Assembly (NCBI GenBank): GCA_964397735.1
Contig: CAYNKD010000001.1
Span: 12,161-52,514 of the forward strand
Source of the DNA: an uncultured bacterium
GTDB taxonomy: Bacteria > UBP7 > UBA6624
DNA: 40,354 nucleotides
Reading direction: 5' to 3'
The position numbers were made by a program, and so were the translations under genes. How positions within the stretch are numbered: position 1 is the first letter of the stretch; each line of letters starts with the position of its first letter. The notes under the pieces were generated by a model, which did not search any database, was not told the DNA's origin, and was given only the letters and a program-made list of their open reading frames with translations. Shown in pieces: positions 472 to 11,862 of the stretch.

Positions 472-1206
472 TTATTTTGTGATTTTATTGATTATTATCG
501 CTGCAGCCGCTGAAACACTTAAACTTTCAACATTTTTAATTGGTATGGTTGTTTTCTCTCCTCTACCTTCCCATGTTTCTGGAATCCCTTTCGATTCATT
601 TCCAAAAATAAGACAAATTTTTTTATTTCTAACCTCTATGTCTTCGATTTTTTTCCCATTATGAGCAGTCGCCAGAATAAACTTATGTTCAGACAAGCTT
701 GTAAATATCTGATTATCCATTTTTGAATAATTTATCCCAAATGAAGATCCTGCAGACGTTCTTAAAACTATTAAATTGTATGGATCTGGAGAATCTTTAG
801 AGAAAAGAAAGTTGTTAATACCATGCGCTAAGCTTGTGCGTATTATCGATCCTACATTTGTTGGATCTTGAGAGAAGAAAGCAACGATGTCCTTGTTATA
901 GTCAATATTTTTTTTTATCGGATCTTTTCCTCTTGCAATAATTGGTTCTAATTTTGGGATGCTCATACATTTTTTAATCAACTTCTCTTCCGCTACAAAA
1001 ATTTTTTGAAAATTTGTATTTTGAATTTTTTTTGCATATTTTTCAGTAGTTATTATTTCAGGGCACCAATCGTGTTTAATGCTGTTTTCAAGAAGTCTTT
1101 CTCCTTCCAGTTTAACAATATTAGATTTTTTGCGCTTTTGTTCGTTTCTTAAGTATTTTAGCCTTTTGATGAAAGGGTTTTTTTCAGATTTAATTTGATT
1201 TTTCAG
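472..1206 (-). CDS. TrmH/SpoU-family RNA 2'-O-methyltransferase (RlmB/group-3-like). The start codon is unresolved.
   Basis: The C-terminal part carries SpoU motifs (CLIFGNESKGIP, ESLSVSAAAAIII). In-frame codons 982-1206 encode KNPFIKRLKYLRNEQKRKKSNIVKLEGERLLENSI, the typical N-terminal motif of this family. The first canonical start is TTG at 981. Upstream candidates are only CTG at 1206 or ATT at 1194. Confidence 0.75.
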   Translation of the reverse strand: MKNQIKSEKNPFIKRLKYLRNEQKRKKSNIVKLEGERLLENSIKHDWCPEIITTEKYAKKIQNTNFQKIFVAEEKLIKKCMSIPKLEPIIARGKDPIKKNIDYNKDIVAFFSQDPTNVGSIIRTSLAHGINNFLFSKDSPDPYNLIVLRTSAGSSFGINYSKMDNQIFTSLSEHKFILATAHNGKKIEDIEVRNKKICLIFGNESKGIPETWEGRGEKTTIPIKNVESLSVSAAAAIIINKITK

Positions 1207-1209
1207 AGT

Positions 1210-4971: not shown

Positions 4972-6114
4972 ATGAAAGTTTTAATTGGGGTTACTGGGAG
5001 TATATCATCATACAAAACTCCAGATTTGATTAGAAAACTGACAGCAAAAAATATTGATGTTGAGGTTGTTTTGTCAAGAGGTGGAGAAAGGTTTGTAGGA
5101 AAAACTTCTTTTGAAGGTTTGACTGGAAAGAAGGTTTATTCTGACCTTTGGGAAGATCCCATGTCGCACATTCATCTGGAAAGGTCTTGTGACCTGATAG
5201 TGGTATGCCCAACAACTGCACATTTCATTTCAAAATTAAGTTCTGGATTGGCTGATGATTTGCTTTCAAATATCATTTTGGCAAAAAAATCACAAGTTCT
5301 TCTTGTCCCTTCCATGAATACAAACATGTGGAATAATTCTGCTATAAGAAAAAATATTTCAAATTTAAAAAAACAAGGTTTTATATTTTTGGATCCTGAC
5401 GAGGGATCTTTAGCTTGTGGGGAGCAGGGCTTGGGTAGACTCCCTGATCTAGAAATGATATTATATGAAATACTTTTTCATCTAACGGATAAAATTCTTG
5501 AAAAAAAATCAGTTTTAGTTACGGCTGGTCCAACTCAGGAATTTATTGATGATGTTAGATTCTTTTCAAATCCCTCAACAGGGAATATGGGTTTTTCTTT
5601 TGCTTTAAACTCTTGGCTCAAGGGGGCTGATGTTACATTGGTCGCAGGCCCTGGAACCCCAAAATCCCCAAAAGGTATAAAAAGAATTGACGTTAAGTCT
5701 TCTCAAGAAATGAAAGACGCTATTCAGGGTAAATATGATTATGGATTTTTTACAGCTGCTGTTACTGATTTTTCTTTTAAACACAAAAAAGAAGGGAAGC
5801 CTTCTAAAGATGATTGGTTCAAAGAGGATATTTATTTGCAAAAAAGCCCTGACGTATTGGCAAGAAAATATAAGAGTTGTAAAAAAGTAATCGGATTTTC
5901 TGTTTATAGTGGAGGGTCTTCTTTGGATGCTGCAAAAAAAGTTTTTAAAAAAGGTGCCGATTATGTGATTACAAACAATTCTTCAAACTGTTTTGGGGAG
6001 AAGAATACAGATGTTGAATTTTTTGATGCTAGTTTAAGTTCAATAGAATTCAAGGGTATAGATAAAATTATTTTAGCTGAAAAAATATTAAATATTATTG
6101 GAGATAAAAAATGA
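4972..6114 (+). CDS. coaBC: Bifunctional phosphopantothenoylcysteine decarboxylase / phosphopantothenate-cysteine ligase.
   Basis: The N-terminal flavoprotein pattern is VLIGVTGSISSYKTPDLIRKL...PTTAHFISKLSSGLADD. A C-terminal CoaB-like half is present, the length is 380 aa, and the synteny fits. Confidence 0.85.
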   Translation: MKVLIGVTGSISSYKTPDLIRKLTAKNIDVEVVLSRGGERFVGKTSFEGLTGKKVYSDLWEDPMSHIHLERSCDLIVVCPTTAHFISKLSSGLADDLLSNIILAKKSQVLLVPSMNTNMWNNSAIRKNISNLKKQGFIFLDPDEGSLACGEQGLGRLPDLEMILYEILFHLTDKILEKKSVLVTAGPTQEFIDDVRFFSNPSTGNMGFSFALNSWLKGADVTLVAGPGTPKSPKGIKRIDVKSSQEMKDAIQGKYDYGFFTAAVTDFSFKHKKEGKPSKDDWFKEDIYLQKSPDVLARKYKSCKKVIGFSVYSGGSSLDAAKKVFKKGADYVITNNSSNCFGEKNTDVEFFDASLSSIEFKGIDKIILAEKILNIIGDKK

Positions 6115-7139
6115 TTAAAAAAAGATTTTTTTTATTTTTTGCTTGTTTCTTCTGTTTCAAAGTTTGGGCAGAGGATAATAGCAAAATTGTTGGACATTTG
6201 GGAGAGGAAAACAACACGAAGCCTATATATTTCGATCATATAAATTTAGGCTTATATCTTAATTCTTCTAGGTATTTACAAATGGGAACAGACCCATGGG
6301 TTCTTAGCCTTATGGACATTATTACTTACAGATTGATGGAAATAGAAGCGGACTCAAGAGGGTTGGAATATCCTGAGTCAGACCTCGAGGATTTTTTATT
6401 TGGAAATCCTACAAATGCAAAGTTGTATAGCTATTATGCTGAAGTATTTGATCCAAAGCTTGTTAAAGAGTATTTCAGGATTCGAAACCTGTCTGAAACA
6501 ACCCAAAAAGTTATAGCTTATGAGTTGCTGGAAACCTACAATAAAATTCCTTCCGAAGAGGAGTTGTTGAATTTTTATATAGAAAATCAAAAAACAGCAT
6601 TTACAAAACCTTCAATGTATCGTCTAGCAATGATTGAATTAGATGATTCTTCCGAGGCTGAACTAGTCGAAAAGAAATTACTTGAAGGGAGTTCTTTTGA
6701 GGAAATGGCTGCTGCTCATTCAATAAATTTTCAATCAGCTTTAGAAGGGGGGTATGTTGGACAAGACCTAGCAGAAGCAGCTATAAAATCTCAAATTCCT
6801 TTTGCAGCAAGTGAAATTTTATCTACCGAAATGGGCTCTTGGGTTGGGCCAATTAGTGTTTCTCCTTCCTTGGGAAAGAATCTTTTCTATTTCTTTAAAA
6901 TTCTTAATTTTGAAGCAGAGAAAGAATCTCCTTTTGAAAATGAAAGAGACTTCATTATGGATTTTCTTGTCAACCAAAAAGCTGAACCTATATATTCTGA
7001 GTGGGTAAAAGAAAGGCTGAAAGTTCACAATCTTCGTTTTGATTACAGTCTATTTAACACAGTCAAAGAAACCTTGGGGCTTGCTGATGATTCTGAATCC
7101 ACTGAATCTGAAGAAAATTCTGATGGTGAAGGTAGTTAG
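6111..7139 (+). CDS. Secreted parvulin-type peptidyl-prolyl isomerase (SurA/PrsA-like) with an acidic tail.
   Basis: The N-terminus is a hydrophobic signal-like segment (FFLFFACFFCFKVWA). A PpiC-like stretch follows (SFEEMAAAHSINFQSALEGGYVG...GSWVGPI). The start overlaps coaBC in an ATGA junction. Confidence 0.55.
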   Translation: MIKKRFFLFFACFFCFKVWAEDNSKIVGHLGEENNTKPIYFDHINLGLYLNSSRYLQMGTDPWVLSLMDIITYRLMEIEADSRGLEYPESDLEDFLFGNPTNAKLYSYYAEVFDPKLVKEYFRIRNLSETTQKVIAYELLETYNKIPSEEELLNFYIENQKTAFTKPSMYRLAMIELDDSSEAELVEKKLLEGSSFEEMAAAHSINFQSALEGGYVGQDLAEAAIKSQIPFAASEILSTEMGSWVGPISVSPSLGKNLFYFFKILNFEAEKESPFENERDFIMDFLVNQKAEPIYSEWVKERLKVHNLRFDYSLFNTVKETLGLADDSESTESEENSDGEGS

Positions 7140-7237
7140 TTGTAACAAAATATTACAAAGTATTTGTTGCAGCAGATCTTTTTAGCTTAAGGTCTTGGGT
7201 ATATTCTTTTGACGGGATTATCAATCCTGGAACTTGG

Positions 7238-8767
7238 GTGTTGTTGGAGAATTGGAATAACCAAAAGAGCTGGGGTGTTGTTTCTGGAGAGACAGAGTGT
7301 TTTTCTGAATCAAAATCTATTTTAGAAATTGGCCCAAAAATGGATTCAAAAAGATATAAATTCTTCCTCAAGTCGTTAAGCTTTTTTATTCCCCCTGGAG
7401 CGTTATTGAGCACTCTTATGCCTTTAAAGGTCCCAGTAGAGCGCTCTGAAGTGCAAAAAGAACCACAAACTTTAAATATTTTTCCAAATTTAAAAACTTT
7501 AGATAGGTTAGGGAAAAAAAAGACATCAAAGTCCAAGAAAAGCATTTTAAACATTGCAAGCGGAAATGATTCAGAGGTTTACGGTCTTGTAGATTCAATA
7601 GGTTTTCCTTTCAATAATCTAAAAAAAATTAACATATTTGAAGAAGGCCATCCTGATTACAGAAGTTTTTATAAAAAAAATCGACATTCTTGGTTTAGAG
7701 ATTCAAAAACATTCTTGAAATCCTGTAAAAATATTTTCAATTGTGAGATTTCTTATATTCAATCAAATTCTTCTCCTTCTGTTGAAAATTATCTAGAGAA
7801 AATAAAAACTAATGATTATCAGAGTTTTTTTAAATCCAATTCTGATTTTATTAGAGAGGGAGATTCTGGCGGAATTAAAGTAGTTAAAAAATGCTTAAAA
7901 GAAAACAAAAGATTAAGTGTCCTCGTTCCCTTTAAGGGAATAGGGCATCTTTTCTGTCAATCTTGTAAAAAATATACAAAATGTCCAATTTGCAAAAAGA
8001 CTTTAACGCTGTATGAACATGAATTGAAGTGTATTGAGTGTAATGATTCTTGGCCAAAAATAAATAGGTGTGACAAGTGCGGAGAGAGGGTTTACAACCT
8101 GAAAAAAGGCCTAGATCATTTTTTCAATTGGTTTTTGATGCAAGGGTTTTCTTCTGAGGACATTGAAGTTATAAGCTCAGAGAAAACACCAAGAGAGATA
8201 AAAAAATCTTTAAAGAATATGAAAGAGGGTCTTTCTAAGGTTTTACTGACCACTAATTTTGAATTTCTAAGAGATGATTATGGGCAAAATATGATTTGGA
8301 TACCTTATTTAAAGTATTTATTTGTAGGCAGTGATTTTAGATCTTACGAGAACGGTTGGTGGAGAATACATGCAATAAATAGTTTTTGTTTAAAAAAAGA
8401 TTTAGATCTATTTTTAGGATCTAAGGGATCTTTTTTCTTTCCGGTAAAATGTTTTGAAAAAGGTGAATTTTCTAAATTTTACAGAGATGAAATCGAAACA
8501 AGAAAGCAATTTGACTATCCTCCTTTTGGAGAGATGTTAATGGTTATTTCAGAAAAAAAAATCAATGGGGTCTCGTACGAAGGGGTTGATTTAGGGGATT
8601 TCGCAAGCGATTTACGTCATTTTAGAGCTTTTAATAGTCGTGGAAGAGAAGAAAATCACACTGCGTATGTTTTTCAATTCAAGGAAATGGAAAAGAATTT
8701 TAAAAAATTCATTAAAAATTTAATTTTAAAAAATGAAAATATTAGAATTTACTACGAAGGAAAATAA
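7238..8767 (+). CDS. priA: Primosomal protein N' (PriA) homolog, shortened, with degenerate helicase motifs.
   Basis: The PriA Cys-rich zinc region is retained (CQSCKKYTKCPICK...CIECN...CDKCG). The C-terminal YPPFG motif and the FFIPPGALLSTLMP winged-helix pattern are present. The gene sits directly upstream of def-fmt. The ORF-track start is GTG 7238; the open frame begins at 7136 with no canonical start before 7238. Confidence 0.7.
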   Translation: MLLENWNNQKSWGVVSGETECFSESKSILEIGPKMDSKRYKFFLKSLSFFIPPGALLSTLMPLKVPVERSEVQKEPQTLNIFPNLKTLDRLGKKKTSKSKKSILNIASGNDSEVYGLVDSIGFPFNNLKKINIFEEGHPDYRSFYKKNRHSWFRDSKTFLKSCKNIFNCEISYIQSNSSPSVENYLEKIKTNDYQSFFKSNSDFIREGDSGGIKVVKKCLKENKRLSVLVPFKGIGHLFCQSCKKYTKCPICKKTLTLYEHELKCIECNDSWPKINRCDKCGERVYNLKKGLDHFFNWFLMQGFSSEDIEVISSEKTPREIKKSLKNMKEGLSKVLLTTNFEFLRDDYGQNMIWIPYLKYLFVGSDFRSYENGWWRIHAINSFCLKKDLDLFLGSKGSFFFPVKCFEKGEFSKFYRDEIETRKQFDYPPFGEMLMVISEKKINGVSYEGVDLGDFASDLRHFRAFNSRGREENHTAYVFQFKEMEKNFKKFIKNLILKNENIRIYYEGK

Positions 8768-9270
8768 TGAAGTTAAAAACTCTGCCAAAAGATTTTTCAG
8801 TCCTTACAAAACAATGTGTTGCTGTAACGAGTAAGGTTTCTGAAAAAATAATTTCAGAAATGAAAGAAATTTTAAAACTAAATGATGGAGTTGGGCTCGC
8901 TGCTCCTCAAGTTGGCTTGGACATGAGGTTAATTTTGTGCAAGGACGATCCTGATTCGAAAAAAATACATATTCTTTTAAATCCTTTGATAGTAGAGAAA
9001 GAGGGTTTGAATATAGATGTTGAAGGATGTTTGTCAATACCTGACTTGGCAGTTGACGTACCGAGACAAACGAAAATAAAAGTCACATATTTAGATATGG
9101 ACATGAATAAGAAAAATATAATCGTTGAAGGTTATTTTGCAAGGGTTTTGCAGCATGAAATTGATCACCTGGATGGAAAGTTGATTATTGAAAGGGGACT
9201 TGATGGAAGTTTTTTCTACAGAGGAGAACCCTTCTCGAAGGAAGAGGTTTTAAGAAAATTTTTAAAATAG
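8767..9270 (+). CDS. def: Peptide deformylase.
   Basis: All three Def motifs are present: GVGLAAPQVG, EGCLSIP and QHEIDHLDG. Confidence 0.9.
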   Translation: MKLKTLPKDFSVLTKQCVAVTSKVSEKIISEMKEILKLNDGVGLAAPQVGLDMRLILCKDDPDSKKIHILLNPLIVEKEGLNIDVEGCLSIPDLAVDVPRQTKIKVTYLDMDMNKKNIIVEGYFARVLQHEIDHLDGKLIIERGLDGSFFYRGEPFSKEEVLRKFLK

Positions 9271-10139
9271 CTTTTGCTGGTTCTGATGATTTGTCATTAG
9301 GTATATTGAAGAAGCTTCCAGTTAAACCAGCATGGATATTAACAAAGCCACCATCTAGGAGCGGTAGAAAAATGAAGCTCAGTGAAAATCTAATTATGAA
9401 TTATGCTCGTGAAGAAAACATTGATTGTTTTAGCAAGCCAAGTGACAACTTAGTTGCCGATTTGTTGATTGTGGTCTCTTATGGAAATATGATTCCTAAA
9501 AAGATGCTAGATTACCGATTTGGATCATTGAACCTACATCCATCTTTTTTGCCAAGATATCGTGGATCTGCCCCTATTCAAAGAGCTATCATTTCAGGAG
9601 ATGAGGAGATTGGAGTTTCTTGGATAAGGCTGGTAGAGGATTTGGATGCTGGTCCTATTGTTTTTCAGGAAAGTGTTGGAGTTGACTACATAAACAAAGA
9701 TAATAATTACAGATCCATAAAAAAGGATATTTCTGTTGTTGGGGCAAGGCTTTTAATTGAAAATTGGGAGAATATTTTTAATTTAAATCTAAATCCAAAA
9801 AAACAATTTGGAGATGTCACATGGGCAAATCGCATCAAGCAGGACGAAAGGATACTTGACTTTTCTAAAGGCGCAAAAGAATTAAACAGTTTGATCAAAG
9901 CTTTAGACCCTTCTCCGGGAGCAAGGTGTAGGCATGAGGATAATTGGGTTATCCTTAAAAGAAGCTCTTTTTCTGATGACTTCAATCTTGATCCTGGAGA
10001 GATTGAATTACAGGGAGATTCTTTGATCCTTGGAACATCAAAAGGCGTTTTGATTATTGACTGTATTGTGCCTCAGGGAAAAAGAGCTATGACGGGAAGA
10101 GATTTTTTAAACAGTAGACCAAATGCAAAATTCAATTGA
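9258..10139 (+). CDS. fmt: Methionyl-tRNA formyltransferase. It probably starts at a non-canonical codon (ATT 9258 or ATA 9267).
   Basis: Motifs seen are SLNLHPSFLPRYRGSAPIQRAI and LDAGPIV. The conserved N-terminal strand KIAFAGSDDLSLGILKKL begins upstream of the first canonical start (TTG 9291). GGAAGAGG at 9240-9247 lies 10 nt before ATT 9258. Confidence 0.8.
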   Translation: MFKIAFAGSDDLSLGILKKLPVKPAWILTKPPSRSGRKMKLSENLIMNYAREENIDCFSKPSDNLVADLLIVVSYGNMIPKKMLDYRFGSLNLHPSFLPRYRGSAPIQRAIISGDEEIGVSWIRLVEDLDAGPIVFQESVGVDYINKDNNYRSIKKDISVVGARLLIENWENIFNLNLNPKKQFGDVTWANRIKQDERILDFSKGAKELNSLIKALDPSPGARCRHEDNWVILKRSSFSDDFNLDPGEIELQGDSLILGTSKGVLIIDCIVPQGKRAMTGRDFLNSRPNAKFN

Positions 10140-11862
10140 AGTAAAGATTATTAAAGAGCTTTTTAGAGAGCATCAATTTCGTTTTTATAAGGGTATTCTT
10201 AAAAAGAAAAGAGTTTTTGTCTGGGCCGTTAGGAGCCCAAATTTTGCATGGAAGTCTTCAGAAAAGATTTTTGAAGGACTTTTAAACAAGCCAATTTCAA
10301 ATGTTTTAACTCTTAGAGGTTTAAATTCTTTTAGGGGTGAATACAGATTTGTTTTAGATGGCTTAAGTCATTTTTGCTCATTTAGAGATTGGCTTAAAAC
10401 AAAACCAAGTTATAGTGAAAGGCTAAAGGTCTCCTCTTCAGTGCTTCGTTCAGTTTCCGGCTTGCATAGTAGGGGATTTTCTCATTGTTGGATTAGCGAA
10501 GATTCTTTTTTCATTGATGATGAAGAAGGTGCTTACATGGTGGATTTTCCTATCAAAAAAATGTATTATTCATCTCTTTTAGACAAAGAAAAAATATCTA
10601 TTAAAAGTTTATTTGGACTTCCTCCAAAAACAGAAGACAGTCAAAAAATTTTTGATGTAAAAAATATTGCTATTTTGGTTATAAAAATTCTTACAGGATC
10701 TGTTCCCCCATTGGTTTCTGGCAATTTTGCAATCCCAAAGAGTATCAATAGAGACCTAAGTAAGGTTTTAGAAGGAATTTTGAATGGCGAGAATTCAAAA
10801 GTTTTAAATCTTCTTCCTGCACTTATAGGAAGATTGGAGATGATCTCAGAAGAAGAAGAGGTTTTGGTTGAAGGGAGTGTTTTTAATTATTTCTCAATAT
10901 TCAGTAGAAAATATTTGGAACCATTTTCGAGAATTTTATTAACCATTGCTAGCATATGGGCTTCTTTTGAGATATTGTATTTATTAGGTTTTAGCCAAAT
11001 TGATTCTCGGATCCCTAATGTTCTTGGGGAGAAAGAGAGCATTGGTTTATCTAAGATCCAATCAAAAGGATTTGTTGTAAATATGGTTGGTTTTGACGTT
11101 GAAAAGAATCTAGAAAGAGGTTTAATATCGAAAACAAAACCTTTGCCTGGTTCGAGCTTAAAGAAGGGGGATGTTGTTGATGTATGGATTAGTCCAGGAA
11201 AATTGGAAAAAATTATTCCTGATTTTTCAAATTTCCAATTGAGTGAATATTTTTCAAAACTGCTTGAAATGGACATTTGGCCAACTGAATTAAAAACAAT
11301 TAAAAGTAATCAATTTTCTGAAGGAAAAATAGCTTCAACAACACCAAGCCCAGGCTCAAAGATAAAGCAAGGCGCTCCATTTTCCATTAATGTGTATTTT
11401 TCCCTTGAAACAAAATTGTCTGTTTTCCCTGATTTTAAAAATATGGATATAGGTGATTCTTTGGAAAAGTTGAAAAGAAGTGGTTTTGAAATTGCTGGAT
11501 CCATCAGAACGAAAAGGTATTTGAGAGAAGATGCCAATAGCCAGACAATAATGTATCAGTTTCCACAAAAAGGTGCTGATATACCAACATTTATAAATCA
11601 CGATCTTTTTTTCATTCTTAACGAATCTAAAAATTGGAATTTTGACATTCGAGAATTGCCTCATTGGGTGAAAAATGGTGGTATTGAGATTGTTGTAAAG
11701 TATGATTCGAAAATTGAAAGGTGGGAAGAGGTTATAACTAGGGGTTTAAAACATCCATCTTTTGAAAATAGGGTTAAAAAGATATTAAATGAAAATAATA
11801 CGCCTATTTTTCTTACAATTAGCCAAGGCGGAAAATTAGCTTGGAGTTCTTACTTTGAATGA
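10123..11862 (+). CDS. Membrane protein with a degenerate Ser/Thr-kinase-like N-domain, one TM helix and about three PASTA-like repeats (PrkC/PknB-like pseudokinase).
   Basis: Kinase-fold landmarks are present without catalytic residues (HSRGFSHCWISEDSFFID...MVDFPI; FDVKNIAILVIKILTGSVPP). The TM helix is ILLTIASIWASFEILYLLGF. Repeats such as IPNVLGEKESIGLSKIQSKGF...PGSSLKKGDVVDVWIS follow. The position between fmt and rpe matches prkC. Confidence 0.65.
   Translation: MQNSIEVKIIKELFREHQFRFYKGILKKKRVFVWAVRSPNFAWKSSEKIFEGLLNKPISNVLTLRGLNSFRGEYRFVLDGLSHFCSFRDWLKTKPSYSERLKVSSSVLRSVSGLHSRGFSHCWISEDSFFIDDEEGAYMVDFPIKKMYYSSLLDKEKISIKSLFGLPPKTEDSQKIFDVKNIAILVIKILTGSVPPLVSGNFAIPKSINRDLSKVLEGILNGENSKVLNLLPALIGRLEMISEEEEVLVEGSVFNYFSIFSRKYLEPFSRILLTIASIWASFEILYLLGFSQIDSRIPNVLGEKESIGLSKIQSKGFVVNMVGFDVEKNLERGLISKTKPLPGSSLKKGDVVDVWISPGKLEKIIPDFSNFQLSEYFSKLLEMDIWPTELKTIKSNQFSEGKIASTTPSPGSKIKQGAPFSINVYFSLETKLSVFPDFKNMDIGDSLEKLKRSGFEIAGSIRTKRYLREDANSQTIMYQFPQKGADIPTFINHDLFFILNESKNWNFDIRELPHWVKNGGIEIVVKYDSKIERWEEVITRGLKHPSFENRVKKILNENNTPIFLTISQGGKLAWSSYFE

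Follow-up and report, generated by a model that had tools for sequence, protein, structure and literature searches.

What remains of the replication restart protein PriA when its helicase motifs have been worn away, and is the remainder still a working protein? The question is raised by a 40,354-nucleotide stretch of DNA (the window) from an uncultured bacterium of the lineage UBP7; UBA6624 (assembly GCA_964397735.1, contig CAYNKD010000001.1, positions 12,161 to 52,514 of the forward strand), in which the priA gene encodes a shortened protein, here called mini-PriA. A sequence-only reading of the window had described this gene as a PriA homolog with every helicase motif eroded but the zinc region intact, and had noted that the frame extends upstream of any usual start codon. 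The analysis reported here established that the ATP site is absent and that the DNA-binding, zinc and C-terminal domains have been retained under constraint. We consider it likely, with a probability of about 0.7, that mini-PriA is the only PriA of its lineage, reduced to an ATP-independent scaffold that would bind forks and D-loops, recruit DnaB and be translated from a start coupled to termination of the preceding gene.

The genome that contains the window is designated G000, and G000-G007 are eight species representatives of a small uncultured marine phylum, all of them incomplete metagenome-assembled genomes (72-93% complete).

Identification as PriA

The gene at 7136-8767 is a true PriA. 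The protein did not reach the cut-off of the curated PriA family (TIGR00595 / PRK05580), yet the matches to the NCBIfam PriA models were still significant, with 77.6 bits (E 7e-22) for NF004069, whose cut-off is 767, and 59.7 bits (E 2e-16) for TIGR00595, whose cut-off is 230. A Pfam search of the protein found no helicase domain and only weak zinc-ribbon matches. Profile-profile alignment with hhalign against 11 canonical PriA proteins gave a probability of 99.9 and an E-value of 3e-31 over 512 columns, at an identity of only ~20%, and the ortholog profile matched the solved PriA structures with an E-value of 2.5e-8.

The AlphaFold2 (AF2) model had a mean predicted local distance difference test (pLDDT) score of 76, and its nine best Foldseek matches were all PriA structures, the first being E. 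coli PriA (8fak, E 1.7e-22, TMq 0.62) and the second the E. coli protein from which the winged-helix domain had been deleted (6dcr). The resemblance to PriA extended over the whole length of the model, and other superfamily 2 (SF2) helicases were matched more weakly. Both RecA-like lobes were present as a fold, lobe 1 lacking its first strand and helix. The gene is single copy and lies next to def and fmt, the slot upstream of these genes to which it had been assigned.

Loss of the ATP site

The motif map (Table 1) was derived from three alignments that agreed with one another, HMMER against E. coli PriA, MAFFT and hhalign. Residues 7-96 aligned to canonical residues 9-105 (hhalign), with beta-strands predicted at pLDDT 78-93 (AF2). 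The 3'-DNA-binding domain closes with the conserved FFIPPGALLSTLMP (canonical 'YY...G.V...ALP'); this stretch had been taken for a winged-helix-like element, but the winged-helix domain is absent. In its place is a short linker that stands for about 120-230 canonical residues, comprising the whole winged-helix domain and the first strand, P-loop and first helix of lobe 1. The main gap is N-terminal of motif Ia, at template columns of about 105-223 that include GVTGSGKTEVY (hhalign, with MAFFT in agreement), and only about 16 residues are gone between motifs Ia and Ib, so the deletion of ~85 residues that had been proposed between motifs I and II was misplaced. Similarly, IASGNDSEVY (7553-7582) is not an eroded Walker A motif. 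It belongs to the motif Ib region, our own label for the canonical "GARSA" segment between motifs Ia and II, and HMMER, MAFFT and hhalign alike aligned IASGNDSEVYGLVDSIGFPFNNL to the canonical 'L.G...IIIGARSALFLPF.NL'. The Walker A segment itself has been deleted and has no counterpart. The description of every motif as eroded thus holds for motifs II, III, V and VI, where the MAFFT and hhalign alignments returned the degenerate forms that had been read from the sequence (SAT to SNS, GTQM to TTNF, GRAGR to AINSF, with FEEGH for DEEHD), but motif I was lost by deletion rather than eroded in place.

Outside the catalytic motifs the picture was one of retention. The eight cysteines of the zinc region (C274, 277, 283, 286, 299, 302, 312 and 315) were kept, as had been noticed, and all eight were invariant in the orthologs. 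The C-terminal signature FY..EI..RK...YPPF was also found, with FDYPPFG and hence the YPPFG remarked on earlier retained.

No GxGK[ST] occurs anywhere in the protein, and neither MAFFT nor hhalign placed a P-loop or DExH box elsewhere. In the same genome Mfd keeps the SF2 motifs GYGKT, DEEQ, SATP and GRIGRR, UvrB keeps GSGKT and DESH, and DnaB keeps GEGKT, which indicates that the erosion is specific to PriA and not the result of compositional drift. Because there is no P-loop, the DExH box reads FEEG and the arginine finger is gone, mini-PriA is predicted to be incapable of binding or hydrolyzing ATP in the canonical way, in line with the original prediction. It is very improbable that nucleotide is used instead through a non-canonical site, in which case the protein would be no true pseudohelicase. 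E. coli PriA has been proposed to possess a second nucleotide site, a weak one (PMC5778457), and E169, E170 and T373 are kept here, but the phosphate-holding strand, P-loop and helix no longer exist in the protein and the arginines of motif VI and the Asp and His of motif II have been lost.

Table 1. Positions of the priA gene, its domains and motifs, and the adjoining genes in the window (dN/dS, ratio of nonsynonymous to synonymous substitution among orthologs)
Feature	Positions	Strand	Remarks
PpiC-type rotamase	6111..7139	+	N-terminus resembles a signal peptide; adjoins priA upstream; TAG stop overlaps first priA codon
Reduced priA, full open frame	7136..8767	+	543 codons plus TAA at 8765-8767
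34 N-terminal codons	7136..7237	+	No ATG, GTG or TTG; strands 1-2 and start of strand 3 of the 3'-DNA-binding domain
3'-DNA-binding domain	7145..7423	+	Residues about 4-96, ending in FIPPGALLSTLMP; from alignments and AF2
14-residue linker LKVPVERSEVQKEP	7424..7465	+	Replaces winged-helix domain and, in RecA lobe 1, the first strand, the Walker A loop and the first helix
Degenerate RecA-like lobe 1	7466..7870	+	Motif Ia, Ib region, remnants of II and III; dN/dS 0.14-0.19
QTLNIFPNLK, motif Ia	7466-7495	+	
IASGNDSEVYGLVDS, motif Ib region	7553-7597	+	Not Walker A; counterpart of E. coli AKNGEAAIVIGTRSA, between motifs Ia and II
FEEGH, motif II remnant	7637-7651	+	In place of DEEHD
SNSSPS, motif III remnant	7763-7780	+	In place of SATPS
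Degenerate RecA-like lobe 2	7871..8425	+	Surrounds the cysteine-rich region; dN/dS 0.09-0.17
Cysteine-rich region	7955..8080	+	Four CxxC pairs for two zinc ions; aligned to that of E. coli PriA; dN/dS 0.13-0.19
LLTTNF, motif V	8240-8257	+	Reads TTNF in place of GTQM
DFRSYE	8333-8350	+	Kept; DFRSxE loop invariant in orthologs
AINSF, motif VI	8372-8386	+	In place of GRAGR; motif reads INSFC, arginine finger gone
C-terminal domain	8426..8764	+	FYRDEIETRKQFDYPPFG at 8477-8530, invariant in orthologs; dN/dS 0.09-0.15
def (peptide deformylase)	8767..9270	+	ATG overlaps priA TAA (TAATG)

Purifying selection on the frame

The frame was uninterrupted in the six species of the genus, with 543-547 codons and 51-77% identity, and the overall dN/dS by the method of Nei and Gojobori was 0.12-0.15 for unsaturated pairs; the regional values are given in Table 1. 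The gene is not a pseudogene and is maintained by strong purifying selection, the dead lobes included. We give next to no weight to the idea that it is decaying, or that its degenerate motifs are an artifact of AT-rich drift. The very low scores on the curated PriA models and the lack of a Pfam helicase domain would be expected of such a relic, but a frame that is intact in six species diverged by up to 50%, at dN/dS of 0.12-0.28, would not, nor would a confident fold prediction alongside undegraded Mfd and UvrB. The selection analysis refuted the pseudogene reading, and the decay in sister genomes that would have undermined the sequence-only reading was not seen.

The first 34 codons and the start of translation

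The frame is open from 7136, as the sequence-only reading stated, and in frame between 7136 and 7237 there is no ATG, GTG or TTG. The first of these codons is the GTG at 7238, which the gene callers take as the start to give a protein of 509 residues. The 34 codons upstream are nevertheless coding. They are in frame, open and free of gaps in all six species, with 20-26 of the 34 residues identical, and the proportion of nonsynonymous differences (pN, 0.11-0.23) is well below that of synonymous differences (pS, 0.32-0.48), the latter including TTA/CTG, AGC/AGT and GTA/GTT. Strands were predicted by AF2 at residues 4-11, 21-26 and 33-38 (pLDDT 78-90) and the stretch aligned to canonical PriA from residue 9 on (hhalign), so that conservation, structure prediction and alignment all upheld its assignment to the 3'-DNA-binding strands. 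Residues 35-68 are still more constrained (dN/dS 0.10-0.13) yet cannot fold without strands 1-3, and the N-terminal extension is therefore needed.

In the sister genus, represented by G006, a GTG start aligned to codon 6, so the start in the genus of the window must lie within codons 1-5. Codon 1 has the form NTA and overlaps the upstream TAG in every species; in G000 it is the TTA at 7136-7138, which overlaps the rotamase stop TAG at 7137-7139 (T-TAG). A candidate ATA start is found at codon 1 in G004 and G005, and at codon 4 in G002 and G003, where codon 1 is TTA and CTA, respectively. No candidate is present in G000, which reads TTA GTT GTA ACA AAA, or in G001, which reads CTA GCT GTA AAT AAG. 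The start region of G000 recurs in an independent metagenome contig. The Shine-Dalgarno signal is weak in this genome, and an AGGT followed by 8 nt would point to the GTA at codon 3, which is weak evidence. Initiation in E. coli reaches 0.1-3% of the AUG level with AUA, AUU, AUC and CUG, and 0.01-0.1% with other codons (bioRxiv 10.1101/063800).

Other routes into the frame were considered and rejected. A programmed -1 frameshift from the rotamase is opposed by the stop that lies in the priA frame directly before codon 1 in every species; the sole possible site has no slippery sequence and is unconserved (AGT/TAG, GAA/TAG, AAC/TAG, AGC/TAG), and the signal peptide of the rotamase also disfavors a fusion of this kind. 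Stop reassignment or readthrough was discarded as the in-frame stop before codon 1 varies among species, being TAG, TGA or TAA. Relaxed initiation machinery was likewise unsupported, with IF3 in all eight genomes and an initiator tRNA in which both the C1xA72 mismatch and the three G-C pairs are found.

The best reading of the priA start, as judged from these codons, is likely a weak re-initiation that is coupled to the end of rotamase translation. The alternative that translation in G000 begins at GTG 7238, ATT 7217 or ATG 7340, leaving an incomplete 3'-end-binding domain and 34 recently orphaned codons upstream, appears unlikely. It would account for the lack of an NCBI table-11 start in codons 1-5 of G000, when an ATA is available at codon 4 of G002 and G003 and at codon 1 of G004 and G005, and it draws some support from a few replacements specific to G000 in the stretch (S13A, T22V) and from the invariant M69. 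The stretch is, however, open and conserved (26 of 34 residues identical to G002), with the same sequence on the independent contig, and the constraint on residues 35-68 noted above requires strands 1-3. Moreover, G001 has no such codon either, which means that its absence arose twice or is tolerated.

Occurrence in the phylum and beyond

The degenerate PriA was the sole PriA in all eight genomes of the phylum, apart from a short contig of G001 considered below. On TIGR00595 the proteins of the genus scored 52-69 bits. The sister genus (G006) has a PriA of 561 residues that scored 37 bits and retains seven of the eight cysteines. The PriA of G007 is longer, with 703 residues and 220 bits, and keeps the lobe-1 segment, although its P-loop reads KPEPDEGD and its DExH box YREK. 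The ATPase loss is common to all eight genomes and is therefore old, and since G007 retains the segment with a ruined P-loop, it preceded the deletion; the protein was later shortened from 703 to 561 to 543 residues.

The mini-PriA family comprised four clusters only among 1.84 billion representative proteins. PriA proteins without a P-loop are not uncommon in lineages with small genomes. Of 138 full-length top matches, 41 had none of Walker A, GTQM and GRAGR, among them named proteins of Uhrbacteria and Portnoybacteria. When 121 Patescibacteria genomes were sampled evenly, 59 had a PriA above the cut-off, mostly matching from model position 1-3 with about 370-640 bits; at least 15 had clear matches of 172-325 bits that started at model position 9-59, which means that the Walker A region is missing; and more than 40 had no clear PriA. 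As a separate observation, many PriA homologs of Patescibacteria and other uncultured lineages lack both Walker A and DExH (e.g. P0011, P0016, P0052, P0054 and P0056).

Replication partners

DnaB, SSB, a UvrD/PcrA-type helicase and Mfd were found in all seven genomes of the family. The G000 dnaB gene (C1:9702-11291, minus strand) lies on the same contig as the window, about 0.9 kb upstream of it and about 8 kb from priA, and its Walker A motif GEGKT is intact. DnaB has 530 codons, and the Pfam DnaB_C match was split in two in every family genome, which suggests an insertion of ~60 residues inside the ATPase domain.

The canonical DDDIPF tip of SSB is the binding site for PriA and other partners. 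In G000 (C13:9809-10102, minus strand) and the orthologs L025 and L028, SSB ends in ...DIPTVDFGDLPPVE/D instead, and in G006 it ends in ...DVNDLPKTG.

No DnaD/DnaB_2 domain and no DnaC/DnaI-type loader was found in the eight phylum genomes, a search that did not extend to PriB, PriC and DnaT. A DciA-like candidate in G000 was located by its position, as a 100-codon open reading frame directly after dnaN (C4:5975-6277) that matched PF05258 with an E-value of 8e-4. The sole above-threshold DciA match in the family (G005:C12, locus L024) is suspect because the adjacent dnaN is only 20% identical to that of G000, and this contig may be contamination.

RecG was not found in any of the eight phylum genomes, where the best matches to the RecG model were Mfd proteins (307-371 bits, against a cut-off of 659). 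It was also not found in the one Portnoybacteria genome checked, which could reflect mere general genome reduction.

Proposed function

Four parts of PriA have been kept: the 3'-end-binding domain, the two-zinc cysteine-rich region, the C-terminal domain and the RecA-like lobes, which would serve as a structural core. In E. coli PriA, the C-terminal domain, lobe 1 and the 3'-DNA-binding domain form the site for SSB and single-stranded DNA. Mini-PriA may find abandoned forks and D-loops by their nascent 3' end and by DNA coated with SSB, hold them and recruit the replicative helicase DnaB, with no unwinding by PriA needed. The K230R protein of E. coli acts in this manner in the PriA-PriB pathway (PMC5778457), and D. 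radiodurans PriA appears to do the same (PMC4504706). A DciA-type partner, proposed because no partners of the DnaC, DnaI or DnaD type were found, might assist in the loading of DnaB. Translation would start within the first five codons after the rotamase stop, by termination-coupled re-initiation at a weak non-canonical codon, and expression would accordingly be low. In E. coli, the priA300 mutant is proficient in restart and the PriA helicase is harmful without RecG (PMC5778457). A phylum in which RecG is missing and PriA is helicase-dead fits these genetics, and we hypothesize that the two losses are linked.

Several observations count against this interpretation, 1) the scaffold role is deduced from the retention of domains, 2) the FDY residues of the canonical 3'-end pocket read WVY/WTY here, 3) the SSB tail is DFGDLPPVE/D in place of DDDIPF, so the contact with SSB may differ, 4) the DciA-like match in G000 is sub-threshold, at 20 bits against the Pfam cut-off of 24, 5) the genomes are incomplete, so that absences are no proof, though they are consistent across all eight, 6) with no table-11 start in codons 1-5 of G000 and G001, initiation there would have to use a codon two mismatches away from AUG, and 7) a 2477-bp contig of G001 (C118, 35% GC; locus L040) encodes the C-terminal half of a canonical PriA with GTQM and GRAGR present (305 bits). 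This contig was the single candidate for a second, canonical PriA in the phylum. As no other member has such a PriA, it was judged to be probably mis-binned; otherwise, G001 has a second priA.

A different use of the fold would be compatible with some of these points. The protein could have left replication restart to serve in some other process on DNA or RNA, for instance in fork protection only or in regulation, and the ~20% identity to canonical PriA, the loss of the winged-helix domain and all catalytic motifs, the altered 3'-end pocket and the atypical SSB tail are all in its favor, as is the catalytic loss suggested elsewhere in the window by a PASTA protein without a Pfam kinase match. 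We regard this as rather improbable. The gene stands where priA stood ancestrally, among neighbors whose order is conserved, and its product is the sole PriA across the eight genomes. Every non-catalytic domain of PriA has been kept under constraint, and restart is known to be possible with a helicase-dead PriA (PMC5778457, PMC4504706). A restart scaffold is the reading that we prefer.

Gene cluster and other non-canonical starts

The gene belongs to a tight same-strand cluster of gmk, rpoZ, coaBC, the rotamase gene, priA, def, fmt, the PASTA protein gene, rpe and metK, in which fmt directly follows def. All six species of the genus share the order from gmk to fmt. Within the cluster, promoter-like and terminator-like sites were no more numerous than in shuffled sequence, as would fit an operon whose genes are translationally coupled. 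The protein in the prkC position (10123-11862, plus strand) had PASTA as its sole Pfam match, with no protein-kinase domain at E<=1.

When five species were compared, 3 of 36 conserved genes, priA, fmt and a trmH-like gene, had no canonical start before conserved coding sequence. At the def-fmt junction (9204-9293) the first TTG (9291) is preceded by the conserved Fmt N-terminus KIFKIAFAGSDD. Both ATT 9258 and ATA 9267 are conserved in five species, and the ATA at 9267-9269 overlaps the def stop TAG at 9268-9270 (ATAG), the same layout as the ATA-G of priA in G004 and G005. The trmH-like gene (472-1209, minus strand) has 76 conserved codons before any ATG, GTG or TTG, and five of five species share a CTG that follows the upstream stop by one codon; as that stop is TAG here and TAA in other species, a CTG start is favored over TAG readthrough.

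A genome-wide scan of codon scores for N-termini of this kind was swamped by antisense shadow reading frames, and only long frames with recognizable N-termini were used. In G000, conserved N-termini before the canonical start were seen in a 538-codon uvrC (C17, minus strand), a 419-codon murA (C18, minus), an obg-like gene (C29, plus), a 394-codon glycerate-kinase-like gene (C4, plus) and a 580-codon frame (C60, plus), with ATT, ATC, ATA or CTG where a start would be expected. Non-canonical starts seem unusually common in this lineage, in which IF3 and the initiator tRNA look normal, and gene callers systematically truncate its genes.

Implications

A natural PriA that lacks the nucleotide-binding segment and the winged-helix domain, yet is under selection, shows how little of PriA its essential job requires, namely the domain that binds the 3' end, the zinc region, the C-terminal domain and the scaffold of the two lobes. 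Its compactness suits it to structural and biochemical studies of how DnaB is loaded in DciA-type bacteria, whose restart is little understood, and the joint absence of RecG turns an interaction known from E. coli, the suppression of recG by helicase-dead priA, into a testable evolutionary prediction. A wider generalization is tentative and may well prove wrong: that the PriA helicase is dispensable across a large, unrecognized bacterial diversity, with the phylum at the far end of a shortening in steps (703 to 561 to 543 residues) that led to a minimal, ATP-free primosome scaffold and was coupled to RecG loss, the Patescibacteria proteins as intermediates and a G000 start codon that perhaps has two mismatches to AUG.

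Comparison with known PriA proteins

A 2018 review in Nucleic Acids Research names Deinococcus as the one exception to PriA as a conserved helicase (PMC5778457), and Deinococcus-Thermus was the only case found in a literature search for published P-loop-less or pseudohelicase PriA. The pseudohelicase of D. radiodurans binds forks and the cognate DnaB and has no ATPase activity (Lopper et al. 2015, PMC4504706). Mini-PriA is likewise an ortholog with non-functional Walker A and B motifs, the binding of forks and DnaB having been measured for the Deinococcus protein and being a prediction here. The Deinococcus genome has DciA and no clear homologs of priB or dnaT (PMC4504706 for priB and dnaT). 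The P-loop of Deinococcus PriA is still recognizable (GKT to GRT), with no domain loss in the paper, whereas the 543-residue mini-PriA has lost the P-loop segment and the winged-helix domain by deletion, with motifs III, V and VI wiped out as well, in a phylum where RecG was not found in eight genomes.

The separate defects have counterparts in E. coli. The priA300 protein (K230R), dead as an ATPase and helicase, supports the PriA-PriB restart pathway, and the second-best structural match to mini-PriA, PDB 6DCR, demonstrates that PriA folds without the winged-helix domain. These are engineered single defects in a 732-residue enzyme that works with PriB and DnaT, whereas the natural protein joins both defects and adds further motif loss. 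No DnaC/DnaI or DnaD was found in its genome, in a search that did not extend to PriB, PriC and DnaT.

The Patescibacteria homologs, such as PJE75793 of Candidatus Uhrbacteria and PJE58368 of Portnoybacteria, for which no description was found in the searchable literature, have no Walker A or DExH and often no GTQM or GRAGR. Like mini-PriA, they keep the eight-cysteine region and come from small genomes. Unlike mini-PriA, most are 570-670 residues long and keep the strand-loop-helix of lobe 1 with substituted residues, and they score 170-325 bits on TIGR00595 against 54-60 bits. Mini-PriA is thus a more extreme, phylum-wide form of a known phenomenon, the one published for the Deinococcus pseudohelicase.

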